Of a stretch of DNA of 12,372 bases, positions 116 to 12,372 are shown one piece after another. The notes under the pieces were generated by a model. It was not told the origin of the DNA. It worked only from the letters and a program-made list of their open reading frames with translations, and made no database searches. This stretch comes from Pseudomonadota bacterium (GTDB lineage Bacteria > UBA10199 > 2-02-FULL-44-16 > JBDRGF01). Numbering within the stretch: position 1 is the first letter of the stretch; the number at the start of each line of letters is the position of its first letter. Where the stretch lies: contig JBDRGF010000073.1 in the NCBI GenBank assembly GCA_043818055.1, forward strand, positions 1 through 12,372. Direction: 5' to 3'. Both the position numbers and the translations under genes were made by a program.

Positions 116-152
116 GTCTAAAAAGTTAGACTGTGAGTCTAAACTTTTAGAC
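116..152. promoter_or_regulatory. Tandem palindromic upstream activator sequences (putative bEBP binding sites), promoter 1
   Basis: GTCTAA-AAAG-TTAGAC (116-131) and GTCTAA-ACTT-TTAGAC (137-152) have perfect 6-bp arms and start 21 bp apart. They lie 111 and 90 bp upstream of a sigma54 box. The same layout recurs at 7805-7841. Confidence 0.8.
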
Positions 153-198
153 GTTTTTGGGAGGCTCCAAAAAAGTGTATTTCTATTTTATTCAATAA

Positions 199-211
199 TA
201 TCAACATTTTA
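199..211 (+). promoter_or_regulatory. IHF binding site, promoter 1
   Basis: TATCAACATTTTA is an exact match to WATCAA-N4-TTR, with an AT-rich tract upstream. It lies between the UAS pair and the sigma54 box. Confidence 0.7.
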
Positions 212-226
212 AAGAAAACCAAGAAG

Positions 227-243
227 TTGGCATGAAGATTGCT
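227..243 (+). promoter_or_regulatory. sigma54 (RpoN) -24/-12 promoter 1
   Basis: TTGGCATGAAGATTGCT vs consensus YTGGCACG-N4-TTGCW, one mismatch, with correct GG-N10-GC spacing. Confidence 0.85.
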
Positions 244-385
244 ATACGCAAGACACATGTTGATCGACGATTTTCTTTATGTAATGATGAATTTATGATT
301 TTTTTGACATATTTTTGAAGAATTAAGCAACAATTCAAGAAAGCGTCCGATAATTATTGTTGAATGACTTAATTCAGGGGATCCA

Positions 386-1597
386 ATGACTCGCAGCACT
401 TGGCTCTTAATAATAGCAAATTTTATCTCGAAGTTTGGGGATTGGGTAATCTTCATAGCCGTTAGCCTATTTATTTATGACAAAACTAAGCTGAATTCAA
501 TGGTTGGATTGGTAATGATTTTGCAGTTTTGCTCTGGTGTTTTAACTGCACCAATACTTCTTAAATGGGCTGACATGTTTAATAAACGCTTAGTTATGAT
601 TGTTGGAGATGTTATTGCGGCAACTGTCATGTTATGTTGGAGCTTTTTTCCAGAAAATCAAATGATGGCATATTCGGTCGTCTTTATTATTGGAACAATT
701 ACTAGTGTATATATTCCGATGCAACAATCACTTTTACCATACACATTAAAATCAAAAGAAAAATTAGACAGAGCAAATGCAGTGATGATTTTTTTATCTC
801 AATCAAATATTCTGCTAGGTGTTGCTGGAGGTGCTAGTCTATTCTATTGGTTAGGTATGCAGAAATTGATTTTCATGAATATGGGGTCATTTATCTTTTC
901 CGCGGTATTGCTTAGTTGTGTTTCTTCATATAGGAAAAACGAAGTAGAAAAATCTAAGATATCCATTTCAGAAGAAAATAGTAATTTAAGAAGTTTTTAT
1001 AAGGACTTGAAGGTAACTAAAGTAATACCTTACATTATTATACCAATTTTTATCCTTCAATTAAGTATTGGTGCAATAAATGGATTAGAAGTGGGTTATT
1101 GTCGAGTATATTTGCAATTAAACGATGCCCTTACAGGTTGGGTCATGTCAACAGCTGGCATAGGTTTGATGTTAGGGGCTGCCTTAATATCTACGATTGG
1201 TTTTAAGTTTTCCCCTGTCAAAGGAGTTTTTTTTGCTTGTTTAGGGATATCAGGTTGCACATTTATGTATTCTTTAAGCAATTCATTCCTTCAAGCAGCT
1301 ATCATTGTAGGAATGGTTGGATTTTTTAATGCAATAATGTCAATTAAATGGCGTTCATATGTACAAAAACAGATTGCAGAAAAGCTTCAAGCAAGGACTT
1401 TTGCTCTAGGGTATTATTTATTCAATACGTCTATGATTTTGTTTATGTTACTTGCCACTATCGTAGCTGACAAATGGAATATAAGAACTGCACTTGTAGT
1501 ATTTTCTATCCCAACAATTTTATTTACTGTTATCTATTTTATATTAATCACTAAAAAAGAAGTTATGTGTAATAATGCAGCAGTCTATAATGAATGA
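386..1597 (+). CDS. MFS transporter, DHA3/MefA-like exporter family
   Basis: 403 aa with about 12 hydrophobic segments. N-terminal ISKFGDW, motif A-like WADMFNKRLVMIVGD, and KLDRANA / LQARTFA loop motifs typical of DHA3-type MFS. Confidence 0.88.
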   Translation: MTRSTWLLIIANFISKFGDWVIFIAVSLFIYDKTKLNSMVGLVMILQFCSGVLTAPILLKWADMFNKRLVMIVGDVIAATVMLCWSFFPENQMMAYSVVFIIGTITSVYIPMQQSLLPYTLKSKEKLDRANAVMIFLSQSNILLGVAGGASLFYWLGMQKLIFMNMGSFIFSAVLLSCVSSYRKNEVEKSKISISEENSNLRSFYKDLKVTKVIPYIIIPIFILQLSIGAINGLEVGYCRVYLQLNDALTGWVMSTAGIGLMLGAALISTIGFKFSPVKGVFFACLGISGCTFMYSLSNSFLQAAIIVGMVGFFNAIMSIKWRSYVQKQIAEKLQARTFALGYYLFNTSMILFMLLATIVADKWNIRTALVVFSIPTILFTVIYFILITKKEVMCNNAAVYNE

Positions 1598-1929
1598 ATT
1601 TAAATATTCAGAATCCTTAGGCAAAGGAAATAAAGGCCTTGCACGTTGCAATGCATTCTAATGGGGCTTGAAAAAAGTATGGCTCAGCGTTTACTAAATA
1701 TGAGTAGCATGGGATATCACGAGATTGCGGAAAGATGACAAATAATTCTCCACAGAAACAATATTATAACGATGTTTGAGTGATGTGTGATATTAGTGAC
1801 TAGTTTAAACTTGCTGTCGAAAATAGATGTTAAGATAATAGAAAATTTCAATTTCGGATATAGCTTAGTGAGATATTTGGAGTTTGATAGGACATTTTAA
1901 AAAGAATTACGACCAATAAAATAAGGAGA

Positions 1930-2727
1930 ATGCTTACTTCGATGAAATTATATGCAAATGTTATTACTAGTTATTATCAGGGTAGGCCTAATTATTCTGC
2001 CGCAGCCAAAGTACTTGTTCAGGCTTTAGAACAAAGATTTGCGAACAATCGGAGCATACGCTTATTGGATTTAGGATGTGGTTTTGGTTTTCATGCCATT
2101 CAACTTGCTATGAACAAATTTAGAAACATTACAGCTGTTGATAATGAAGTTGCAATGATCGTTAAATTTAAGGATCAAGTTTCAAAATTGCAAAAAAAGA
2201 TTCAATCAAGAATAAAAATATATAGAGATGATTGGTTTAATCTGAATGGTGAATGGAATAGAGAAAATTATTATGATTGTATCTATTTATTAGGCAATAC
2301 AATAGGTCTTGTTGGAAATAAAATACTATTTCAAAAACTTTTTAGTAGAGTGACGCAAATGTTAAAGACTAATGGGCTATTCATTTTTGATCGTGTTTTG
2401 TTTTCACATATTGATAATGATTCTTGTCCAAAATGGTCTGAACCTATATTTCATAATGAAGAAAATAAAAATTTCCAATTAGCAATTACGAAAAATATTG
2501 ATATGAATTCAAAAGAGGGTGTCCTTATTCTGCACGTAAGATGGGTTGATGGTTCGATTTTCTCAGATGAGAAGGAAATATATAAAATTTATCAATTTGG
2601 AACGGTTGATATAGATAATCTGGCATCAATCTTTAGATGTAGGATTGTTTCATTAATTGATTTGGATTCAGAAGAGAAGGTGGAGAAAGGTACAAATAAA
2701 TGTATGTGGACTTTAGAAAAATTATGA
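1930..2727 (+). CDS. Class I SAM-dependent methyltransferase (glycine/sarcosine N-methyltransferase-like motifs)
   Basis: Motif I LLDLGCGFG, post-I ITAVD, DW motif, YDCIYLLGN, and LKTNGLFIFD. AAGGAG at 1923-1928; the start may be the ATG at 1930 or at 1942. Confidence 0.88.
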   Translation: MLTSMKLYANVITSYYQGRPNYSAAAKVLVQALEQRFANNRSIRLLDLGCGFGFHAIQLAMNKFRNITAVDNEVAMIVKFKDQVSKLQKKIQSRIKIYRDDWFNLNGEWNRENYYDCIYLLGNTIGLVGNKILFQKLFSRVTQMLKTNGLFIFDRVLFSHIDNDSCPKWSEPIFHNEENKNFQLAITKNIDMNSKEGVLILHVRWVDGSIFSDEKEIYKIYQFGTVDIDNLASIFRCRIVSLIDLDSEEKVEKGTNKCMWTLEKL

Positions 2728-4241
2728 ATAAGACATCTAAAATAGCGACTTTGATACTAATGCTAATTGGCTGTTGTGGTAATGCTTTTGCAAGCGATTA
2801 TCGAACTGCTACACCAGATATACCTAAAAACTGGGATCCTAGGTATAATACGTTGGGTTATTATACTCGATTTAGTTATCAAGTGTTTTGTTCGTTATTG
2901 ACGATTGATGAAAATCTAAATGTGTCAAACGCGTTAGCAAATCGATGGAGTGTTTCTGATGGTGGAATGAAATATATATTTGAAATTAGGAGTGATGCAG
3001 GATTTCAAAATGGACAGAGTATCTTGGCAGAAGATGTTGTTCTCTCATTAAAACGTATGATATCAGATAGCACGTTGTCTAAGGAATTGAAGGTCATCAA
3101 GTCAATCCATGTTGCAAAAGATAAAACCGAATATCCTTCGCGCTGGAATGTAGATAGAAAGAGAGTAGTAATTATTGAGCTTTTTAGGCCATATGTTCAA
3201 TTGTTGTACATTATTTCAAGTCCGGCTATGGCTATATTCCCCGCTAAACAACTAATGGAAAACCCAAATGTATTTTTTAAAAAACCCATCAGTTGTGGGC
3301 CTTTTAATATAGAATTAATAAATAAGAAAACGGTAATTCTTAAGAAAAATAAATATTATTATAATGCATCTCAAGTCAAGATTGAGAGAATTTATTTTTA
3401 TAAATATAATTTGAATGAAGCAGTCAGTGAATTCAATAAAGGGTCTTTAGATGATATTATTTTATATGCAGCAGATAAGAATGAAATTAAGAGAGAGTAT
3501 AATGTGTTAAATGGTAGGACATATATCACTCGAATGTTACAATTTAATACCAAAAAGGGTGTGTTTAAAAGTTTGAATATGAGAAAGGCCTTCATTTATG
3601 CATTTGACAAAAATAATTATGTAAAATTGGTAAACAGTAAAAATCTTATTCCTGCTACAGGTTTTATTCCAAAAGGTATGATTGGTTATTCAGAGTCTGA
3701 ATATTATTTATATTCTCCTGAAAAATCTAGAAAGCTGCTTCAAAAAGAAAAAGTGGATCATAACAAGAAAATTATTATAATATCATCACGACCTCAGGAA
3801 GCTGAAGCATTGTCTGTTATTGCTAAAGATATTGAAAAGATTTTGGGAATAGCAATTGAAGTGAAAAAAGTAACCTCAGCAGAGTTTTATCAAAGATGGA
3901 TATCTTTTAATGATGATATTATGCTTGGAGGTGCGGATAGTATCTATTTGGATCCATATTTCCAACTTCGCTATGCTATTCCAAGTTATAATGAAAGGTG
4001 TATTACTGAGTTTAAGAACAAAAATGTGGAAGAATTGCTTGAAAGAACACAGACTATTGTAAATAAAAGTGAAAGAGCTAAATTGTATAATAAGATTGAT
4101 AACTTAATTATGGATGATGCATTAATATTGCCTTTATATTATGGTTCTATAAGTACAGGAATTTACTCTCCTGATGTTTATGGTATAAAACTGCCTCCTA
4201 ATGGAGTTCAGCATGTAAGATATGAAATAGTATCAAAGTAA
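2724..4241 (+). CDS. Family-5 extracellular solute-binding protein (OppA/DppA-like), no cognate permease or ATPase in the window
   Basis: Signal peptide MNKTSKIATLILMLIGCCGNAFA. SBP_bac_5 signature LANRWSVSDGGMKYIFEIRSDAGFQNG..AEDVVLSL, plus PISCGPF, MRKAFIYAFDK and ILPLYY. Start placed at the ATG at 2724, which forms an ATGA overlap with the methyltransferase stop, rather than at 2700. Confidence 0.9.
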   Translation: MNKTSKIATLILMLIGCCGNAFASDYRTATPDIPKNWDPRYNTLGYYTRFSYQVFCSLLTIDENLNVSNALANRWSVSDGGMKYIFEIRSDAGFQNGQSILAEDVVLSLKRMISDSTLSKELKVIKSIHVAKDKTEYPSRWNVDRKRVVIIELFRPYVQLLYIISSPAMAIFPAKQLMENPNVFFKKPISCGPFNIELINKKTVILKKNKYYYNASQVKIERIYFYKYNLNEAVSEFNKGSLDDIILYAADKNEIKREYNVLNGRTYITRMLQFNTKKGVFKSLNMRKAFIYAFDKNNYVKLVNSKNLIPATGFIPKGMIGYSESEYYLYSPEKSRKLLQKEKVDHNKKIIIISSRPQEAEALSVIAKDIEKILGIAIEVKKVTSAEFYQRWISFNDDIMLGGADSIYLDPYFQLRYAIPSYNERCITEFKNKNVEELLERTQTIVNKSERAKLYNKIDNLIMDDALILPLYYGSISTGIYSPDVYGIKLPPNGVQHVRYEIVSK

Positions 4242-4250
4242 CTTGTTATT

Positions 4251-6122
4251 ATGAAAATAAAATTAAACAAAGCCTTGTCATACCCAATAGGAACGATTGT
4301 TTTTCTATCTATAGTTATTACATCCTTACTATTGGGATATTTCTTTTATAAGAATATGATAAATTCTTTTTATCGTTCTGCAAATATATATTTAGAACGA
4401 GAAGCTATTAATATTCGCGAGCCTTTAGTGATTTACGATTATCCCGAGGTAATAAAGCGTTATAATGAGGATTTAAAAATTCCAGGGTTGATTAGCATAT
4501 CAGTTTATGATGATCAGGGCCTATCTATTGTTGACTGGAGAATCAACAACTATCGAAAATCTAATAAATTAGAAAAACTTATAATTGTGTATCAAAAAAT
4601 ATTTGATATTGATAATCCGTCAAGATTAGTTGGGTCAATAAAAATGATTTTTTCAGATTCTATGATTAAAAAAATGTTTTTAAATACTGTTTTGACAACA
4701 ATGATAATTGCTTTTATTGTGTCATTATTTACAGTTGTACTTGTAGCAATATTTATTAAACGTATAATTAGAGCTCTGATGTATATAGTTGAAACTATGA
4801 AGAAATATAAACCGGGAGTATTATATTCATCTGATTTTGATTTGGATTCATTTGTATACGAATTTGATATATTAAAATCTGCTTATTATAAAATGAATAA
4901 TACAATAATACAACATCAGTCTATTTCAAAGAGATCTGCCCATCTTGCCGCAATCGGCCAGATGTCATCACACGTCGCACACGACATGCGTTCTCCGCTT
5001 TCTGTAATACAGGGATATATCGGAGGAGAGCATAGTGATGAGATGAGAAAAGCTGCGATTAATGGTGTGAATAAGTTAAATCGTATGGCGGATGAACTGC
5101 TCGATTATGCCAAAGCCTCAAAGGTAGAGCCTGTTATTACATCGGTTAAGAGCCTTGTTGAAACTACCGTTAGCAATGAGATTCAAAAGCTTGCAAATGA
5201 AAGAGGTGTTAAGCTTATCTATGATGTCAGCAATGATATAGTTGCAAAAATAGATCACTATCGCATGGGGCGTGTTTTGATCAACCTTATCACTAATGCT
5301 ATTCAGGCCATCGATGGTGTTTCAGGAGAAGTTAGAATTACGGTGAAATTAGAAGAGGATTCACTCAAAATAACGGTGGCAGATAATGGCAATGGCATTG
5401 AAAAAGAAAGTCTGGAGAAAATCTTCGACAGCTTCTTCACAAAGGGAAAAGTAAAGGGTACCGGCCTCGGCCTTTCATACTGCAAAAACGTCATCGAAGC
5501 CCACGGCGGAACGATTGAGGTATCAAGTGGATTAGGGCAGGGCACAGAGTTTGTTATTCATATCCCATCATGCATTACAGAACTACATGCTACATGCCAC
5601 ATACCACATACGTCTTTGGTTTCCCCACCACATACCACATACCATATGCCACATCCGCCTTTGCTCTCTCCACCACATGCCACATGCTACATGCCACATG
5701 CGCCCTTGGTGTCCCAGCATCACCCCGAGATTACCACGTCGTCTCTTCAAACGGAGACTCCTCGTAATGACAAACCAGCGACTGACATTCTTGTTGTAGA
5801 TGATGATGTTGGTATAATGTTGCTGTGGAATACGAAGATACAGAAGAAGTACGGTAAGCCGCCGCTTACGGCAGTCAGTCCCGAAGAGTTGATGAAGTCT
5901 AAATTCGATTACAATAATATATCGAAGGCGATAGTCGATTATCAGTTTGAGGGGAGCAAGTTAAGTGGCCTCGATGTTGTACGTTTTTTGAAAGAGAAGG
6001 GTGTGAAGGTCATTCACATGTGTACTGGCATGTTTCATGATGAAGAGCTTCAGAGAGAGGCGAAAGAATTGGGTGTTGTTTCAATCATACCAAAGCCGAT
6101 AGCGGTTGATGTGGATGTTTGA
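4251..6122 (+). CDS. Membrane-bound hybrid sensor histidine kinase (2 TM + extracytoplasmic sensor, HisKA, HATPase_c, C-terminal receiver)
   Basis: Two TM segments. H-box VAHDMRSPL, N-box NLITNAIQA, G1 DNGNGI, F-box FDSFFT, G2 GTGLGL. Receiver domain ILVVDDD..IVDY..MCTG..IPKP retains the DD/D/T/K residues. Repeat-derived linker between HATPase and receiver. Confidence 0.93.
   Translation: MKIKLNKALSYPIGTIVFLSIVITSLLLGYFFYKNMINSFYRSANIYLEREAINIREPLVIYDYPEVIKRYNEDLKIPGLISISVYDDQGLSIVDWRINNYRKSNKLEKLIIVYQKIFDIDNPSRLVGSIKMIFSDSMIKKMFLNTVLTTMIIAFIVSLFTVVLVAIFIKRIIRALMYIVETMKKYKPGVLYSSDFDLDSFVYEFDILKSAYYKMNNTIIQHQSISKRSAHLAAIGQMSSHVAHDMRSPLSVIQGYIGGEHSDEMRKAAINGVNKLNRMADELLDYAKASKVEPVITSVKSLVETTVSNEIQKLANERGVKLIYDVSNDIVAKIDHYRMGRVLINLITNAIQAIDGVSGEVRITVKLEEDSLKITVADNGNGIEKESLEKIFDSFFTKGKVKGTGLGLSYCKNVIEAHGGTIEVSSGLGQGTEFVIHIPSCITELHATCHIPHTSLVSPPHTTYHMPHPPLLSPPHATCYMPHAPLVSQHHPEITTSSLQTETPRNDKPATDILVVDDDVGIMLLWNTKIQKKYGKPPLTAVSPEELMKSKFDYNNISKAIVDYQFEGSKLSGLDVVRFLKEKGVKVIHMCTGMFHDEELQREAKELGVVSIIPKPIAVDVDV
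5583..5717 (+). repeat. Three tandem 45-bp units (4 x CYACATR heptamer + 17-bp tail), in frame within the kinase
   Basis: Units start at 5583, 5628 and 5673 and encode LHATCHIPHTSLVSP / PHTTYHMPHPPLLSP / PHATCYMPHAPLVSQ. Confidence 0.92.
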
Positions 6123-6131
6123 AAAAATGCG

Positions 6132-6200
6132 CCTCCCCTTGATAAGGGGAGGGTGGGAGGGGTCATGACCCCCTCTGGCTCCCCCTTAGTAAGGGGGAGG
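6132..6200. repeat. Intergenic inverted doublet of GC-rich hairpins (REP/REPIN-like)
   Basis: CCTCCCCTT-GAT-AAGGGGAGG (6132-6152), central palindrome GGGGTCATGACCCC (6159-6172), and CTCCCCCTT-AGT-AAGGGGGAG (6179-6199). Confidence 0.8.
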
Positions 6201-6235
6201 ATTTAGTATTAATGTAGTTTTAAAAGGAGTTCAAA

Positions 6236-7579
6236 ATGAACAAAGATTATAGAATATTATGCGTGGATGATGATGAGGATTTTCTTGTGCACATGAAGAG
6301 CATGCTTTCGAATTACAATGTTGTCACTTCGACTTCCCTAAAACGTGTTCTTAACCCGGAGACCTTAAGGGATATAGATACCGTCCTTCTTGATATAGAC
6401 ATGAAGGGCGAGTCCGGCATGGATGGTCTGAAGAGCATCAAAGATATGGATGCGTCGATCAACATCGTCATGGTCACGGGGCACAGAGAGCCGGAGATGA
6501 TAGTGGAGGCGATCAAGGCGGGCGCTTCTGATTATATATGCAAGCCGATAACTAAAGATGATCTGTCGGTCTGTATAGAAAAAGCAAAAAAATCGCGGCT
6601 GGACAAGGAGAAGATAAACGCACTCATGAGTGAGCTCAATAGTGTTGACGTCTCTTCAAGGATAATCGGAAGAAGCAGAGCATTGTCGGAGCTATTGGAA
6701 AAGGCAAAGAAGGTAAAGGGTTATCACGATGCGCACGTTTTGATAGAAGGGGAGAGCGGCACGGGAAAAGAACTGTTAGCCCGCTACGTCCATCGACTGG
6801 AAGAAAATTCGCACCGGCCTTTTGTTGTCGTAAATTGCGCGGCTATACCTGAAAACCTGATAGAGTCGGAGTTCTTCGGTCACGAAAAGGGATCTTTCAC
6901 GGGCGCCATTTGCAAGAAGATAGGAAAACTCACCCTTGCAGATAATGGCGATCTCTTTCTCGATGAGATCAACACATTAAAACCAGAGCTTCAGGCGAAG
7001 CTTCTTCGCGCCATACAGGAGAAGGAGTTCTGTCCGGTCGGCGGCAATGAACCTATAACGTCGAATTTCAGAGTGATCGCTGCGACAAACGAAAATCTGG
7101 ATAAGCTTGTTCAAGAGGGAAAGTTTCGTCTGGACCTTTATCACAGGCTTAAAATCGTTCAACTGCATATGTCTCCATTGAGGGAGAGAAAAGACGATAT
7201 CCCAGTTCTCATCGACCATTTTTTGAACAAGTTTTCAAAAAAGGGGAGCGTCAAAAAGATATCGAAGGGCGCGATGGATAAACTTCTAAATAATAATTGG
7301 CCGGGAAATGTGAGAGAGCTTGAAAATATTGTTCACAGTGCTGTAATTTTATCTCAAGGCGATATGATAGATGGAGATGATTTGCCACTATCGAAAAGAT
7401 CAACAACAAAACAAGAAGATCAAAATATGCTTTTGAAGGATTATATCAACAGCGCCGAAAAGAATTACATTCAATCCGTCCTAGATAATTTAAACGGCAA
7501 CCGAGAAAAAGCCGCCGACCACCTAGGCATCAGCCGCGCCACCCTCTACAATAAGATGAAAACGCTAGGTTTGGAGTAA
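6236..7579 (+). CDS. sigma54-dependent response regulator (NtrC family bEBP: REC, AAA+, Fis HTH)
   Basis: REC ILCVDDD..LLDIDM..VTG..KP. Walker A GESGTGKE, GSFTGA (GAFTGA loop variant), Walker B LFLDEI, FRLDLYHRL, WPGNVRELEN. HTH AADHLGISRATLYNKMK. AAGGAG RBS. Confidence 0.96.
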   Translation: MNKDYRILCVDDDEDFLVHMKSMLSNYNVVTSTSLKRVLNPETLRDIDTVLLDIDMKGESGMDGLKSIKDMDASINIVMVTGHREPEMIVEAIKAGASDYICKPITKDDLSVCIEKAKKSRLDKEKINALMSELNSVDVSSRIIGRSRALSELLEKAKKVKGYHDAHVLIEGESGTGKELLARYVHRLEENSHRPFVVVNCAAIPENLIESEFFGHEKGSFTGAICKKIGKLTLADNGDLFLDEINTLKPELQAKLLRAIQEKEFCPVGGNEPITSNFRVIAATNENLDKLVQEGKFRLDLYHRLKIVQLHMSPLRERKDDIPVLIDHFLNKFSKKGSVKKISKGAMDKLLNNNWPGNVRELENIVHSAVILSQGDMIDGDDLPLSKRSTTKQEDQNMLLKDYINSAEKNYIQSVLDNLNGNREKAADHLGISRATLYNKMKTLGLE

Positions 7580-7770
7580 GAAAAGCAGCATATGGCATGT
7601 AGCATGTGGCATGTGGTGAAAAACCAACAACCAAGCCCTTCCCCCTTTCCGCCAAAGGCGGATCCGCCTCGGGCGGAGACGGGGGAAGGTGCCCGTAGGG
7701 CGGATGGGGGTGAAGGCTTTTCGCCTTTCACTACATACTACATGCCACATGCTACATACGCTTTTTCTTA
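7577..7770. repeat. Composite palindromic element: ~44-bp imperfect inverted repeats made of 4 heptamers, enclosing a DUF559-type repeat copy
   Basis: 7577-7620 TAAGAAAAGCAG-CATATGG-CATGTAG-CATGTGG-CATGTGG-TGAA is the imperfect reverse complement of 7727-7770 TTCA-CTACATA-CTACATG-CCACATG-CTACATA-CGCTTTTTCTTA. A further partial unit lies at 7772-7792. Confidence 0.8.
7634..7716 (+). repeat. Dispersed copy of the DUF559-associated palindromic repeat (long-loop form)
   Basis: AGCCCTTCCCCC-[TTTCCGCCAAAGGCGGATCCGCCTCGGGCGGAGAC]-GGGGGAAGGTGCCCGTAGGGCGGATGGGGGTGAAGG matches the copies at 10664-11524. Confidence 0.92.
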
Positions 7771-7804
7771 AATACATGCTACATACGCCTTTATCTTCAT
7801 AACC

Positions 7805-7841
7805 GTCCGATTCTTTAGACTGAAAGTCCAATAATCTGGAC
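7805..7841. promoter_or_regulatory. Tandem upstream activator sequences, promoter 2
   Basis: GTCCGA-TTCT-TTAGAC (7805-7820) and GTCCAA-TAAT-CTGGAC (7826-7841) start 21 bp apart, as in promoter 1. Confidence 0.75.
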
Positions 7842-7886
7842 ACATTCGAACAAATCAAAACCACCTCAGATCAACAAACCCATATA

Positions 7887-7899
7887 TATCAACACGTTA
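7887..7899 (+). promoter_or_regulatory. IHF binding site, promoter 2
   Basis: TATCAACACGTTA is an exact WATCAA-N4-TTR match starting 28 bp before the sigma54 box, the same offset as in promoter 1. Confidence 0.7.
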
Positions 7900-7914
7900 A
7901 CCAACCCACCATTG

Positions 7915-7931
7915 TTGGCACGGTAAATGCA
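7915..7931 (+). promoter_or_regulatory. sigma54 (RpoN) -24/-12 promoter 2
   Basis: TTGGCACGGTAAATGCA vs YTGGCACG-N4-TTGCW, one mismatch. Confidence 0.85.
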
Positions 7932-8014
7932 TAAGGGATGAGTGATTCAGCTTAGCGAATGGTCGCAAAGCTATGTAAAACAGGGGTGGGGCGAGAGCAT
8001 TGAGGAGGGTTGGG

Positions 8015-9595
8015 ATGAAGAGTTTAATTAAATGCTCAGCAGGTTTGTTGCCAGTCATTTGCGCTTTTGCACTGCTAATTGCGGGCTGCGGTGGCGCGAG
8101 CACAGATTCCGGCACAGGTACGGAGACAAATCAATCTAATGAGACATCGGTTCTAAAGGTTCAGGAGGCGAGTCCGGTTGATGCGACAAAGGATGTCCCC
8201 GTCAATAGCACGGTTACAGTCGCATTCAATACGAAGATGGATACTGTTTCAGTAGAACAGGCATTTTATGTCAGTTCGGGAAATGCAATAAACGGCGATT
8301 ACAAGTGGGATGACACAAAATCAAAAGTTACCTTCACACCAAAATACGCCCTTGATTATTCCACAGAATATACCGTCACCATCACAGTAGATGCTAAGAG
8401 CGATACCGGCGAGAAGTTGCCTGCCGAATACAAGACAAAGTTTACCACGCTAGCTCAAAGTGCAAATAATCAAAATACTGGAAATCAAACAAACAACAAT
8501 ACCGGAACACAAACAGGCACAGGAACGGACTCCGGTACTGGAACCGGATCAGGCACGGGTACTGGAACTGGATCAGGTACAACCACTGAAAAGGATACGA
8601 CTCCCCCCGTTATTTCTTCAATCAGTCCACAAGACAATGCCGTAGATGTTACACTTGAGTCCCCTATCACTATAACATTTAGTGAAGCGATGAATAAGCA
8701 GTCGGTAGAAGATAATTTAAAAGTTACAGGATATTTTCAGGAAGGTTATATGTCGACTCTAATAAAAGGAAATATCACTTGGAGCGGAAATACATTGACC
8801 TTTGTTCCTTCTGAAACACTCTTTTCATCAATTTTGTCATACACTTTTTCTTACTCATCAAAGTACAAAATTGAAATTGGAACAGGTGCTAAGGATCTAG
8901 CAGGAAATTCCCTTTTGTCAGCCTTTTCCTCGACATTTGAAACAGAAAAAAGATCTGCATTTTTGTTAGATGGAACTGGTGATGCGGTCTTATCGAATAT
9001 GTCACATTCACAGAATAGCGATTTCACAGTTGAAGCCTGGGTATATCCAACAAGTTATAGAACAATGATAATCGCATCCGATAAAGCCTATGAACTGCTG
9101 CTAAATTATAATTCTCTGACTGGTTACTATTTAAGTCTACGGGTATATAAAGAGGATTGTGTAAATAAGATCGAAGCTGGTTTCAATCCGGGTATGAGCG
9201 GACTTGCACGCAATCAGTGGATGCACGTTGCCGGAATGTATGATAAAGCAAATGGAGAAATCATAATTGCCGTAAATGGTATTGTTAAGAAAATCTCTTT
9301 TACGCAAATCGCACGACTCTGTGCAAATCCAAGTTTCAACTTCAGCATCGGAGATATTTACACAGAACCAACAGAGAGCAACCGCGACTTCGAAGGCGCT
9401 ATCGATGATGTGCGCATATCCGACATCGTCAGATATGCCGCCGATTATGTTCCTGAGAAGGATCTAGCTTCAGATCAAAATACGAAAGGTTTATGGTCGT
9501 TTGATGAGAGCGCCGGCTCGACATCGTTCGCTGATTCGTCCGGCTATGGAAACACATTGACAGCATCAGGTGATGCTAAAACGGGTTTAAAATAA
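8015..9595 (+). CDS. Lipoprotein with two bacterial Ig-like (Big_5-like) domains, Thr/Gly/Asn linker and C-terminal LamG/ConA-like domain
   Basis: GAGGAGG RBS precedes the ATG at 8015 (preferred to the TTG at 8000). Lipobox LIAG-C. Two SP.D.A.DV....I.I.F...M...SVE repeats. LamG-like motifs FTVEAWVYP, WMHVAGMYD, FEGAIDDVRISDIVRY and GLWSFDE. Confidence 0.85.
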   Translation: MKSLIKCSAGLLPVICAFALLIAGCGGASTDSGTGTETNQSNETSVLKVQEASPVDATKDVPVNSTVTVAFNTKMDTVSVEQAFYVSSGNAINGDYKWDDTKSKVTFTPKYALDYSTEYTVTITVDAKSDTGEKLPAEYKTKFTTLAQSANNQNTGNQTNNNTGTQTGTGTDSGTGTGSGTGTGTGSGTTTEKDTTPPVISSISPQDNAVDVTLESPITITFSEAMNKQSVEDNLKVTGYFQEGYMSTLIKGNITWSGNTLTFVPSETLFSSILSYTFSYSSKYKIEIGTGAKDLAGNSLLSAFSSTFETEKRSAFLLDGTGDAVLSNMSHSQNSDFTVEAWVYPTSYRTMIIASDKAYELLLNYNSLTGYYLSLRVYKEDCVNKIEAGFNPGMSGLARNQWMHVAGMYDKANGEIIIAVNGIVKKISFTQIARLCANPSFNFSIGDIYTEPTESNRDFEGAIDDVRISDIVRYAADYVPEKDLASDQNTKGLWSFDESAGSTSFADSSGYGNTLTASGDAKTGLK

Positions 9596-9641
9596 TGCCC
9601 GAATAACAATAATCGAGTGGGAGAGAACAAAGGAGGGTTGT

Positions 9642-10580
9642 ATGAAAGCAGTAAAGATGTACATGGCAGTGCTTGCGATGTTCGCTATGGCTGCCTGTGG
9701 TAGCGCAAGTCAAAGCGACACAACGCAAGGGGAGGGTGCCCAGATGAACCTCTCGTCAAAGTCGTCGGCTATATCATATGCAGACGCAGTAGGTTCAGCC
9801 GCTGAAAAGGCGTTTGGCAATGCTGAAATGGAAAATGTTAAAAGCGGTCACACGAATGCCAGCAAAGCAGTCGAACCTCAGAGCGATGAATCTGATTATG
9901 CCTCATTTCTATGCGAGCCCAGATCGTTTTCATTTGATGTTAAAGACTTCAATGTTGCATCGGCAAATGGCGGCTCTGCTCTTTTCTCAGGCAACATCAT
10001 CTGGAAACAGGATGTTAGCACTTTGATGGATCTTACAATGGATATGTCAGCCATATTTGAGAGATTCATTGTGGGCGAAAAATTTAACGGAAGCGATGTG
10101 TTCGTAGATGGTACTGCAAAGGAAAGAGGAAATATCAGGATGGAGTTCACTAAAGGTTACGATCCTTTTTGCAAAGGAGATGCTTCGCTCGATGAGAATT
10201 CTGCTGATGAGGTCGATATCACTCTAACAGGCAAAGGCCATATGGAAGGCAACCTGACCATCTCCGGTGGAGTAGGCGGATCGATGGAGTATAATGTTGA
10301 CGAAGAAATCACGGCCACATTGTCAAGTCTTGATGACCAGGGTTCAAAGAAGGCTTCAGGATATTTCACAATGAAATCGGGAAACGAGAGCGTAACATGT
10401 ACTCTTTCAGAAGAACCGGTCAAATTAGATGAAGGATACAAACTCGATTGTAATATATCAGATGAAACAACATCCACGACCAAAGAGCTGATGGATGACG
10501 TCGCTGAAGACGTATTCAGAAAGGGCACAGTAAAAACAAAGCTCGATACATTGAGATCACTATTATCGGGACAAAAATGA
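9642..10580 (+). CDS. Hypothetical lipoprotein (acidic, likely beta-rich)
   Basis: AAGGAGG RBS. MKAVKMYMAVLAMFAMAA-C lipobox. 312 aa; no family recognised. Confidence 0.8.
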   Translation: MKAVKMYMAVLAMFAMAACGSASQSDTTQGEGAQMNLSSKSSAISYADAVGSAAEKAFGNAEMENVKSGHTNASKAVEPQSDESDYASFLCEPRSFSFDVKDFNVASANGGSALFSGNIIWKQDVSTLMDLTMDMSAIFERFIVGEKFNGSDVFVDGTAKERGNIRMEFTKGYDPFCKGDASLDENSADEVDITLTGKGHMEGNLTISGGVGGSMEYNVDEEITATLSSLDDQGSKKASGYFTMKSGNESVTCTLSEEPVKLDEGYKLDCNISDETTSTTKELMDDVAEDVFRKGTVKTKLDTLRSLLSGQK

Positions 10581-10851: not shown

Positions 10852-11286
10852 ATGAAAAAAAACTCCAACATAAAATTAGCGAGATCTCTTCGCAGAAATA
10901 CTACAGAACCAGAAAAAATACTTTGGTTCTACTTACGCAAAAGAAGTCTAAAAAACTTCAAATTCAGAAGACAATATCCAATCGGTAAATACATTGTAGA
11001 TTTTATATCTTTTGAAGCACGTTTAATTATCGAATTAGACGGCAGTCAACATTTAGCAAGTGAAGAGAGGGATGCAAGGCGTGACAATTGGCTAATGGGA
11101 GAGGGATTTAAAGTGCTACGATTTTACAATAACGAATTGCTCGAGCATCGGGAGAGGGTGTTGGAATCGATTGTAGATGCGTGTGAAAAACACTCACCCC
11201 CTTCTGCCCAAAACCTCTCACCCCCATCCGCCCTACAGGCACCTTCCCCCATCGAGGGTGAAGGGCACAGAGGAAAAAGTCATTGA
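10852..11286 (+). CDS. DUF559 family endonuclease-domain protein (Vsr-like PD-(D/E)XK fold)
   Basis: ARSLRRNTTEPEKILWFYLR, FRRQYPIGKYIVDF, LIIELDGSQH and DARRDNWL..EGFKVLRFYN. Start set at the ATG at 10852 (AAGGA upstream), because the GTG at 10786 lies inside a repeat. The C-terminal ~30 aa are largely repeat-encoded. Confidence 0.92.
   Translation: MKKNSNIKLARSLRRNTTEPEKILWFYLRKRSLKNFKFRRQYPIGKYIVDFISFEARLIIELDGSQHLASEERDARRDNWLMGEGFKVLRFYNNELLEHRERVLESIVDACEKHSPPSAQNLSPPSALQAPSPIEGEGHRGKSH
11218..11266 (-). repeat. DUF559-associated palindromic repeat, inner right copy (short loop, inverted)
   Basis: Reverse complement reads GCCCTTCACCC-TCGAT-GGGGGAAGGTGCCTGTAGGGCGGATGGGGGTGA. An extra tail fragment lies at 11194-11209. 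Confidence 0.9.
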
Positions 11287-11551: not shown

Positions 11552-12372
11552 ATGGGAAGAGACTTTTGGTTATACAGAACAGGGCAGTTCTTATCTATCG
11601 TTGGAGATTATTGTGGTAGTATTGCTTTCGCATGGTGGATTTTAGATAAAACCGGATCAGCGGCGGTTATGGCAACGATTCTTGCGCCACCTATGTTGGT
11701 AAGGATTTTCATGCTGCCTCTCTTAGGCCCAATTGGTGATAGATTTTCCAGAAAGCATATTGTTTTTATCAGTGATATCTGGAGGGCGGTGTTTACCTTT
11801 GTAATTGTTGCTTTTGTTATGTTTGATTATTTCAGTGTCATACCTATTGTCATTATTTATATTCTTTTATCGATCGGATCGGCTGCATTTCATTCCGTAG
11901 CTATTAGTATCGTTCCACAGCTCGTTGAAGAATCAAAAATATCCAAAGCGATGCGGCAAAGCCAGACAGTTATGTATCTCGGTATGGTTTTTGGAGGAAT
12001 TTCAGGAGGATTCTTAGTAAGTATTTTAGGAGTACGTGGAGCTTTTGCTGTAGATGGAATTACATTTTTAATATCTGCTGTATTAGCATTATTGATAAGA
12101 GCTAAAACAAAACCAAAGATAGTGGTGGTTAGCGAATTGTCGTTTATTAAGCAGTGGAAAAAAGAACTATTTGAAGGTTTTAGATTTATTTATAAAGTCC
12201 CGGTATTTTTTTGGCTCTCGATTTTTGCAATGTTGTGCAACTTCACATTTGCACATCTAAATGTGGGACTCCCTGTATTGGTGAAGGAAACACGGGATTT
12301 GCCCGCGTGGTTTTTAGGATCGCTTGAATCAAGCATAGGCATAGGTTCAATAATTGGGGCGCTTCTTGTAGG
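11552..12372 (+). CDS. MFS transporter, DHA3/MefA-like, truncated by the window end
   Basis: Not in the ORF track. Hand translation of the 5' part gives MGRDFWLYRTGQFLSIVGDYCGSIAFAWWILDKTGSAAVMATILAPPMLVRIFMLPLLGPIGDRFSRKHIVFISDIWRA, with motif A GPIGDRFSRK. AAAGGA RBS upstream. The frame appears to continue to the window end. Confidence 0.88.
   Translation, partial: MGRDFWLYRTGQFLSIVGDYCGSIAFAWWILDKTGSAAVMATILAPPMLVRIFMLPLLGPIGDRFSRKHIVFISDIWRAVFTFVIVAFVMFDYFSVIPIVIIYILLSIGSAAFHSVAISIVPQLVEESKISKAMRQSQTVMYLGMVFGGISGGFLVSILGVRGAFAVDGITFLISAVLALLIRAKTKPKIVVVSELSFIKQWKKELFEGFRFIYKVPVFFWLSIFAMLCNFTFAHLNVGLPVLVKETRDLPAWFLGSLESSIGIGSIIGALLV

Follow-up and report, generated by a model that had tools for sequence, protein, structure and literature searches.

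The window analysed here, a stretch of 12,372 bp, carries a series of genes on the + strand. It begins within the 3' end of a radical-SAM gene (1-59, +), the last gene of an upstream operon on contig C3. Thereafter come a tandem palindromic UAS, the predicted activator site (116-152; GTCYRR-N4-YYRGAC twice, with a 21-bp period), an IHF-type site (199-211, +; exact WATCAANNNNTTR) and the sigma54 -24/-12 element of the cassette operon (227-243, +). The operon itself encodes an MFS exporter (386-1597, +; MFS_1), a class I SAM methyltransferase (MT; 1930-2727, +, start perhaps at 1942), a family-5 SBP (SBP_bac_5; 2724-4241, +; E 1.8e-54), a hybrid HisKA-HATPase-REC kinase (4251-6122, +) and an NtrC-type sigma54 activator (bEBP) with REC, AAA and HTH domains (6236-7579, +). 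A second promoter on the + strand, with UAS (7805-7841), IHF-type site (7887-7899; again exactly WATCAANNNNTTR) and sigma54 element (7915-7931), precedes two predicted lipoprotein genes, one with two Big_5 domains, a Thr/Gly-rich linker and LamG (8015-9595, +) and one of no named family (9642-10580, +), which has a 24% paralogue on C60 adjoining another kinase-activator pair. Thus, all genes of the co-directional run in the original prediction were found, and the tight coupling claimed for the middle three was verified: the MT and SBP genes overlap by 4 nt (ATGA) and the SBP and kinase genes are spaced by 9 bp.

The kinase consists of a TM segment, a single PAS-like (PDC) periplasmic domain, a second TM segment, a coiled linker, HisKA (H244), HATPase, a repeat-filled linker and a C-terminal REC domain (D563), after which no DNA-binding domain of its own follows. 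Its periplasmic domain resembles the PAS-like domains of WalK, CitA, LapD-type proteins and LuxQ (Z 8.5-10.4; 8.5-8.6 for LuxQ). The N-terminal part was nearest to the kinase of C42, a sister cassette in the same genome (33%), while the core was 67-80% identical to the other paralogues but 34% to C42; by these identities the kinase is chimeric, joining a variable sensor to a shared core. Within this gene the GC content shifts from about 30% to about 45%, on which the original prediction was silent. The activator has REC D53, Walker A/B, GSFTGA and HTH, and its five paralogues in the genome (53-63% identity) have similar recognition helices. An analogy to the Vibrio LuxU relay had been drawn earlier; however, no stand-alone HPt was found in the genome (93.6% complete), and the two Hpt domains that were found each stand at the start of a long CheA-like gene (583 and 753 aa) in chemotaxis-like runs, which argues against a relay of that type.

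Within the window, no permease or ATPase gene of the Opp/Dpp ABC importer type lies beside the SBP gene. Because the genome's two Opp-type permease pairs, on C21 and C102, each have an adjacent SBP5 of their own, the window SBP is very likely a partner of the kinase and not part of a transporter, as had been proposed; the recurring SBP5-kinase adjacency and a clade of its own also argue for this. In the SBP5 tree, 13 of 16 kinase-linked SBP5s fell on one branch apart from the transport OppA proteins, with an SH-aLRT of 99 (98 in the first tree); both were quick trees (the second had 3 additions and lacked 6 long-branch rows and 10 array members), and the clade was seeded with kinase-linked members. 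Three SBP5s found independently via the kinase profile stood outside the clade on long branches. When the SBP profile was searched, the top three new matches beyond the seeds (G058, G055 and G057) and the fourth (G084) were all kinase-linked. Close orthologues were also looked for: a word-based protein search (8000 candidates scored, E<=1e-30) returned only the SBP itself, and a three-sequence SBP alignment had no match in genome contigs and one ordinary OppA-like gene in metagenomes. P0012, the closest SBP outside the genome at 40% identity to the window SBP, lies on a 150-kb contig. Among the 28 long SBP5-containing matches scanned for a Rosetta-stone fusion with a histidine kinase none was found; 3 had MCP and 6 had Ser/Thr-kinase domains.

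The predicted structure of the SBP is a confident cluster-C peptide-binding fold (pLDDT 93.7), with DppE, OppA and AapF as the nearest structures. Its best single-sequence PDB match was AapF, which was solved with the signal HEHEAA and is annotated as a transport-system protein; it has a role in signal import (AapF-PipR). The original prediction had left the ligand as a methylated peptide or amino-acid derivative, and the peptide is favoured by the RiPP enzymes and precursor-like ORFs of the sister cassettes. Family-5 SBPs are also known to bind metals, opines and sugars.

The gene set is real, but it is one member of a multi-copy family. The genome holds four SBP5-kinase cassettes, or five when a PBP6 version is counted. 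The four sisters are C42 (MFS-B12 rSAM-18-aa ORF-MT-SBP5-HK), C99 (rSAM-62-aa ORF-MT-SBP5-HK-activator), C35 (MATE-MT-rSAM-16-aa ORF-SBP5-HK) and C75 (MFS-26-aa ORF-MT-rSAM-PBP6-HK-activator), and each has a methyltransferase, a radical-SAM enzyme of the RiPP type and a short precursor-like ORF with strong initiation. The four ORFs have SDs of -10 to -12 kcal/mol, and a hairpin of -22 to -25 follows three of them. The best NCBIfam models of the B12 enzymes are RiPP maturases, namely ApyD, below its cut-off, and TIGR03975, above its cut-off in L031; the best model of the C75 radical SAM was PapB, below cut-off. The window MFS is DHA3/H+-antiporter-like with a score under the curated cut-off and is 31% identical to the MFS of C42. 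The nearest models of the MT are amine N-methyltransferases (glycine/sarcosine NMT, daptide MTase), all under cut-off; for example, the daptide methyltransferase model NF041820 gave 39.8 bits against a curated cut-off of 175. The MT is 27-29% identical to those of C42 and C99, and its two closest paralogues immediately follow precursor ORFs and genes for B12 radical SAMs.

The 332-bp gap between the MFS and MT genes (1598-1929) is a further feature which the original prediction did not mention. It occupies the position of the B12 radical SAM and precursor ORF in C42. No radical-SAM maturase was found within the window operon, although the sisters and the upstream operon have one, and no ORF in the gap or leader carries sister-type SD or hairpin marks: the best SD in the gap was -5.5 kcal/mol and the hairpin -10, versus -10 to -12 and -22 to -25 in the sisters. 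A weak precursor candidate is a 23-28-codon one-cysteine ORF (1575/1589-1661), which overlaps the MFS stop. A broken maturase in the gap was looked for and rejected, since tblastn with 15 sister proteins gave a best E of 0.05, and neither tblastx/blastn against the genome and loci nor Pfam on the six frames (X at stops) and Rfam on the window returned anything. The gap was real in the sequencing run tested, possibly the source sample, where an independently assembled contig spans 982-1910 with zero differences. In an RNA run there were contigs identical to portions of the MT, kinase, activator and lipoprotein genes, though such contigs cannot show expression. The claim that the cassette synthesises its own signal is not supported by these data, as the radical SAM and precursor of its closest paralogue are missing here.

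Outside this genome, SBP5-kinase loci with swapped enzymes were observed in one Bacteriovoracaceae genome and in 9 of the 92 further genomes of the phylum. None of these eleven loci (L031, L032, L033, L039, L079, L080, L081, L083, L214, L215 and L216) had an Opp-type permease in a BLAST panel, and modifying enzymes adjoin the SBP in seven. L216 has the window's gene set in a different order. L032, L033 and L079 are enzyme-free SBP5-kinase pairs, so a listen-only state is plausible. L214 and L216 are cassettes that have methyltransferases and a tiny peptide ORF but no radical SAM (in L214, a 9-codon ORF with an SD of -12.6 and a hairpin of -32), and therefore a cryptic precursor in the window is possible. 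L226, also radical-SAM-free, has methyltransferase(s) and an NMT1-type binding protein. The MT subfamily was absent from cassette context in the 92 other genomes, where one weak match lay in a glycan-like locus. The B12 radical SAM was rejected as a marker of the circuit: SBP and kinase were both present at 1 of 79 loci, and this locus, which repeats the L047 proteins, was counted once. A literature search found no paper on the SBP5-kinase cassette family.

The same promoter had been reported before the cassette operon and the lipoprotein operon, and its identical build was verified at both: tandem 16-bp palindromes lie 21 bp apart and the distance from the start of the UAS to the -24 TGGCA is 112 and 111 bp. 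The two IHF-type sites match the IHF consensus exactly. The second promoter and the C3 peptide operon have identical -24/-12 elements. Genome-wide we found 11 tandem UAS pairs, versus 0, 2, 0, 2 and 1 in five block shuffles, counts that are biased in the motif's favour because the motif was derived from the same sites; single sites hardly exceeded chance (19 versus 5-13). A sigma54 site lies 107-122 bp downstream of nine of the 11 pairs, giving nine sigma54 promoters preceded by the same tandem UAS, and rpoN was found in the genome. These patterns support the placement of the window operon under a predicted UAS-sigma54 promoter. The predicted regulon consists mostly of natural-product cassettes, plus an Lnt-Rhs giant. 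Private feedback of the operon on itself, as first suggested, is not supported, because the UAS is common to nine promoters and might be recognised by any of six paralogous activators; given the composition of the regulon, the lipoproteins as the main output are not supported either. They are indeed predicted lipoproteins, but "adhesin-like" is based on the Big_5/LamG domains only. As a phylum-wide motif the UAS was rejected: its exact tandem pattern occurred in 1 of 92 other genomes, with no sigma54 site in the 370 bp read there. Weaker look-alikes (2 mismatches per site) precede related cassettes in L083, L214, L215 and L222, while L032 has a different palindrome.

We give about an even chance to the reading that the window is one input channel of a modular, multi-copy modified-peptide sensing system, whose sigma54 regulon is shared with the sister cassettes. 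The transporter-less SBP would likely capture a modified peptide and likely control the neighbouring kinase through contact with its small periplasmic PAS-like domain. His244 may then transfer phosphate directly to the sigma54 activator, with the REC of the kinase as a sink or brake, and the activator would bind the UAS and presumably turn on the common regulon. New channels could arise when an AT-rich front half (exporter, enzymes, SBP and sensor domain) is swapped onto a conserved kinase-activator back half. Most likely, the window copy alone makes no complete signal. It may listen for a peptide from another cassette or strain, or else N-methylate and export the peptide of the directly upstream operon, which consists of peptide, PqqD, three radical-SAM and MFS genes; the end of C3 overlaps the first 141 bp of the window, and the link rests on this contig overlap, which forks two ways. 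Two observations go the other way: the MFS and MT are intact full-length ORFs, although a sender inactivated long ago would tend to have shed them, and no trace of a deleted maturase was found in the gap.

Among the alternatives, the one that survives best, though we consider it unlikely, is the self-contained autoinducer circuit of the original prediction. In it the MT, without another enzyme, would N-methylate a small amine or a peptide that is very short or has weak translation signals, such as the ORF overlapping the MFS stop; the product would leave through the MFS and be sensed by the SBP-kinase pair. This circuit would agree with the intact MFS and MT, coupled to the SBP, with the MT's closeness to amine N-methyltransferases and with the radical-SAM-free MT cassettes L214, L216 and L226; however, the unmarked ORFs of gap and leader, the location of the MT's two nearest paralogues, which follow on from precursor and B12 radical-SAM genes, and the near absence of the MT subfamily from cassettes elsewhere in the phylum all speak against it. 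Less probable still is nisin-like, product-sensing autoregulation of antimicrobial or other bioactive RiPPs, in which the peptides would be end products monitored by the SBP-kinase pair, with the window copy serving export or immunity through methylation. The regulon is dominated by exporter-bearing natural-product cassettes and includes the Lnt-Rhs giant, a fork after one promoter into two different cassettes would suit strain-level warfare, and sigma54 activators are described as driving natural-product genes in Myxococcus xanthus (PMC7910581). But tiny precursors, each with its own divergent receptor, suit signal specificity, no immunity family was recognised, and the mechanism overlaps with that of the input-channel reading. 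Nutrient or environmental peptide sensing in the manner of CBP-ChiS is an improbable explanation, in which the SBP would bind a nutrient from outside and might in addition serve a permease from another locus, with MFS and MT only as regulated outputs: direct contact of CBP with ChiS provides a precedent (10.1101/2020.01.10.902320), two Opp-type permease pairs exist, and three of ten related loci with readable upstream DNA lack an enzyme, but each permease pair has its own SBP5, the SBP co-varies with peptide-modifying enzymes and precursors at most loci, and the regulon as annotated has no catabolic genes. Finally, a chance or chimeric gene run is very improbable, for although the contig begins at an assembly fork in a bin with 28 shared contig ends, independent contigs agree without differences over the MFS-gap region and many other parts, and the same order recurs in C42 and C99.

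Beyond the input-channel reading of the window, we tentatively propose, while thinking it rather doubtful as a whole, an uncultured diderm lineage with a multi-channel "pherotype" system. Its many chemically different RiPPs (B12-methylated, thioether-linked, lanthipeptide-like and N-methylated) would each be read by a dedicated orphan SBP and PAS-sensor kinase, and all would feed a single sigma54 regulon that comprises natural-product, Rhs and surface genes. Strains would exchange channels at one chromosomal site, by recombining within the kinase gene and in the promoter that the channels share, and the window would be a listen-only (eavesdropping) allele. Quorum sensing by modified peptides has been described chiefly in Gram-positive bacteria, and for most radical-SAM RiPPs no function is known. 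If every orphan pair of maturase and precursor is accompanied by a receptor of its own, the cognate SBP-kinase would be a built-in biosensor for the matured peptide and a direct assay of function. Such a family would further offer exchangeable parts for peptide sensing, whose sigma54 output can be rebuilt in E. coli, and an example from nature of specificity groups being exchanged within an uncultured phylum.

Parts of this arrangement resemble known systems. ApyD, of the aminopyruvatide enzymes ApyD/ApyS, is described as a peptide C-methyltransferase (10.1101/2023.10.30.564719). It is the best-scoring model of the sister B12 enzymes, though they score far below its cut-off, and no MNIO or P450 was seen. 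In the Rgg/SHP-controlled radical-SAM RiPP operons of streptococci, the signal is reportedly a separate unmodified peptide read in the cytoplasm. These too are radical-SAM peptide operons under cell-density-type control, whereas here receptor and maturase share one cassette and sensing would be periplasmic. The agr and ComQXPA systems of Bacillota resemble the present family in bringing precursor, maturase, exporter and sensor together in a single cassette, in positive feedback, and in joining, within the kinase gene, a variable AT-rich half for specificity to a conserved half for signalling. For the precursor gene there are clear candidates in the four sisters and a weak one in the window. 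Here, by contrast, a periplasmic protein distinct from the kinase would read the ligand, the output is sigma54-type, the host is a diderm, and none of the nine window proteins gave a Pfam/NCBIfam match to AgrB, ComQ, LytTR or NarL. CBP is presumably a family-5 SBP as well. In Vibrio cholerae it directly contacts and regulates the hybrid membrane kinase ChiS (10.1101/2020.01.10.902320). Both cases pair a binding protein with a hybrid membrane kinase, the contact in the window being predicted from genomic and fold evidence. The CBP ligand is a nutrient (chitin oligosaccharide) and ChiS itself binds DNA, while in the window the sigma54 activator is a protein of its own, a permease is absent and genes for peptide modification lie alongside. 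In Vibrio LuxP/LuxQ/LuxU/LuxO, parallel autoinducer channels converge on one sigma54 activator. The window shares with it a binding protein encoded with a hybrid kinase (PAS-like periplasmic domain), a sigma54 activator with REC, AAA+ and HTH, several input channels leading to one output, and sigma54 promoters with UAS. It differs in having an SBP_bac_5 of the cluster-C peptide-binding fold where LuxP is of the sugar-binding class (AI-2), and one small periplasmic domain instead of two. As no stand-alone HPt was found, it would work in a LuxPQ- or CBP-ChiS-like manner and is not a member of LuxPQUO; several paralogous activators, direct transcription of biosynthetic cassettes as the output, and probably a peptide as the signal set it further apart.

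All the genes, the junctions and both promoters of the original prediction were confirmed in the window: genes for an MFS transporter (386-1597), a class I methyltransferase (MT, 1930-2727), an SBP_bac_5 binding protein (SBP5, 2724-4241), a hybrid kinase (4251-6122), a sigma54 activator (6236-7579) and two lipoproteins (8015-9595 and 9642-10580), with UAS-IHF-sigma54 promoters at 116-243 and 7805-7931. The window spans all of contig C73 of genome G000 (2.93 Mb, 43% GC, 93.6% complete), and in this genome sister loci were found by tblastn and ORF calling. Contig C42 carries MFS, B12 radical SAM, an 18-codon ORF, MT, SBP5 and kinase; C99 carries B12 radical SAM, a 62-codon ORF, MT, SBP5, kinase and activator; C35 has MATE, MT, B12 radical SAM, a 16-codon ORF, SBP5 and kinase; and C75 has MFS, a 26-codon ORF, MT, a PapB-like radical SAM, PBP6, kinase and activator. 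On C38 (L164:3265-5062, minus strand), a radical SAM is followed by four precursor-like ORFs in tandem, each rich in Cys and preceded by a strong SD; next come a divergent SBP5 and, ahead of the contig end, an MT. For the short ORFs of C42, C99, C35 and C75, the SD energy ranged from -10.3 to -11.9 kcal/mol, and a hairpin of -22 to -25 came after three of the four. The top model for the sister B12 enzymes was the RiPP C-methyltransferase ApyD, with a score far below the cut-off; ApyD methylates a tyrosine of a peptide (10.1101/2023.10.30.564719). An S8 subtilase of 1000-1170 aa adjoins many cassettes (L002:10786-13986, L003:8922-12314, L164:8960-12475, L039, L214 and L215), with about ten close paralogues (69-78%) in G000, and could mature or destroy the cassette peptides.

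The closest sister of the window cassette was C42 (MFS 31%, MT 27%, SBP 43%). Gene order is the same in both, but the radical SAM and the precursor that separate MFS from MT in C42 are absent from the window, which has a 332-bp gap there (best SD -5.5, best hairpin -10). No remnant of a lost gene was found in this gap, and a scan of the whole window gave no short ORF with an SD of -8.5 or stronger in the cassette region; this leaves three options for the cassette: pure listening, completion of a peptide produced elsewhere, or use of a cryptic substrate. An independently assembled contig matched window 982-1910 exactly. Translational coupling could allow expression of an ORF of 23-28 codons that overlaps the MFS stop, though overlaps of this kind are frequent in AT-rich DNA. 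By contig overlap, the upstream neighbour is an operon on C3 with the same kind of promoter, containing a 24-codon ORF (SD -12, hairpin -25), PqqD, three radical SAMs and an MFS, with neither MT nor binding protein. The same 141 bases end C3 and start both the window contig (C73) and C35; 19 differences follow in the next 178 positions, and the two diverge at 320. To judge from these sequences, the fork would fit alleles of two strains, swapped inside the promoter in the manner of specificity groups. Alternatively, there may be two copies and a contig that was lost, and forks are many in this bin. At the other end of the window, a DUF559 gene (very-short-patch endonuclease-like, 10852-11286) lies between GC-rich inverted repeat elements recurring genome-wide; a second, DHA3-like MFS gene (11552-12372) runs past the contig end; its continuation was not found in the bin, and it has no sigma54 site upstream.

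The UAS is a 16-bp palindrome in tandem with a 21-22-bp period. G000, in which rpoN was found, has 11 tandem pairs, against 0-2 per shuffle in five shuffles, and a sigma54 -24/-12 element lies 107-122 bp downstream of nine of them; the motif was derived from the same sites as were counted, so the fixed spacing is stronger evidence than the counts. Tandem UAS (at most 3 mismatches in total) occurred at 9 of the 59 sigma54-like sites, before the window operon, the lipoprotein operon, the C35 cassette (a near-copy of the first window promoter), the C3 peptide operon, each half of the C75 cluster, a C33 cluster (L165:1500-12010) of radical SAMs, an ATP-grasp ligase and a class I tRNA-synthetase-like protein, an unnamed gene on C88 and a 4124-aa Lnt-Rhs protein. 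The latter (C3:24670-37044; L167:671-13045, minus strand) joins an apolipoprotein N-acyltransferase (Lnt) with DUF6531 and Rhs repeats in one protein. A single perfect site lies upstream of a C60 cluster (L166:930-9750) with an alanine-racemase-like gene, ATP-grasp enzymes and an ABC exporter. Six paralogous activators of G000 share 53-63% identity and have similar HTH helices, and it is likely that these paralogues read the UAS. With nine such promoters and six such activators, the predicted feedback is plausible, yet it is not private to the window cassette.

In the AlphaFold model, the periplasmic part of the kinase is one small PAS-like domain between two transmembrane helices, which matched the sensor of a Clostridium kinase, a LapD-type domain, WalK, CitA and LuxQ (Z 8.5-10.4), although sharing a fold is no proof of function. 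The N-terminal part was closest to C42 (33% vs 21-24% for the remaining full-length paralogues), whereas the core shared 67-80% identity with C99, C75 and a dCache kinase and only 34% with C42; GC rises at this boundary, from about 27% to roughly 40-50%. Such a pattern would be expected if an input half had recombined onto a common output half. His244 and Asp563 of the kinase and Asp53, the Walker motifs and the GSFTGA loop of the activator were present, and direct transfer from kinase to activator would be simpler, since both Hpt domains of G000 lie inside CheA-like genes. A short repeat is dispersed over 49 contigs (17-letter core; 92 matches with at most 2 mismatches) and has copies at 5586-5700 and 7597-7760; in frame within the kinase linker it gives a His/Pro/Thr-rich insert, missing or shorter in the paralogues.

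The window SBP has a predicted cluster-C peptide-binding fold (pLDDT 93.7), with DppE, OppA and AapF closest. Service to an ABC permease encoded elsewhere, one of the outcomes that would have spoken against the original prediction, found no support among the nine SBP5 matches of G000, because both Opp-type permease pairs have their own SBP5. We consider it highly probable that the protein is a receptor, and its ligand is somewhat more probably a peptide than not. Its signal peptide (2724-2800) combines a lipobox-like Cys17 with a signal-peptidase-I-like site, and those of the sister SBPs look type I. The collection included 93 genomes from the phylum of G000, and of the genomes searched, only G000 itself represented its family. 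The pairing of SBP5 and kinase recurred, with such loci in 9 of the 92 other phylum genomes (G011, G014 twice, G026, G033, G055, G057, G058, G082 and G084) and in one Bacteriovoracaceae genome. The latter locus (L031) encodes a fusion of an MT with a TIGR03975 RiPP methyltransferase. Other loci contain a B12 radical SAM with MT (L039), a FemAB-like GNAT (L081, L083), DUF4135 with a 23-codon ORF (L215), or MTs as sole enzymes with 9- or 11-codon ORFs (L214, L216), and L216 has the window's gene set in changed order. Three loci lack an enzyme (L032, L033, L079) and one is cut (L080). A kinase-sensor profile, for which 20 of the listed regions were examined, also found PBP6, NMT1, DctP, phosphonate-type and ABC_sub_bind proteins at the same position, indicating that the binding-protein class itself is swappable. 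In quick trees, 13 kinase-linked SBP5s formed one branch (SH-aLRT 98 and 99) separate from permease-linked SBP5s, a clade partly built in by the eight kinase-linked seeds of the profile; three further ones were long branches without placement. Elsewhere, relatives G003, G012 and G014 (L035, L037, L046) have 6-7 OppA genes in tandem arrays by one permease set, and related SBP5 domains (P0004, P0013, P0033 and others) are fused in pairs or fours to MCP signalling domains, BTAD/AAA regulators or Ser/Thr kinase-AAA proteins.

Taken as a whole, the explanation that a transporter-less SBP captures a modified peptide and controls, through kinase and sigma54 activator, a regulon common to the sister cassettes has about an even chance of being correct. 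The architecture itself is real, recurrent and built from known parts, and apparently unpublished: no report of an orphan SBP with a kinase inside RiPP cassettes was found in literature whose coverage of subscription journals was thin. Control of natural-product genes by sigma54 has a precedent (PMC7910581), and CBP-ChiS and LuxPQ are precedents for the binding-protein-kinase part (10.1101/2020.01.10.902320). The window system would work like LuxPQ or CBP-ChiS, by a binding protein and a kinase, and its modularity resembles that of agr; it is a member of none of the three.
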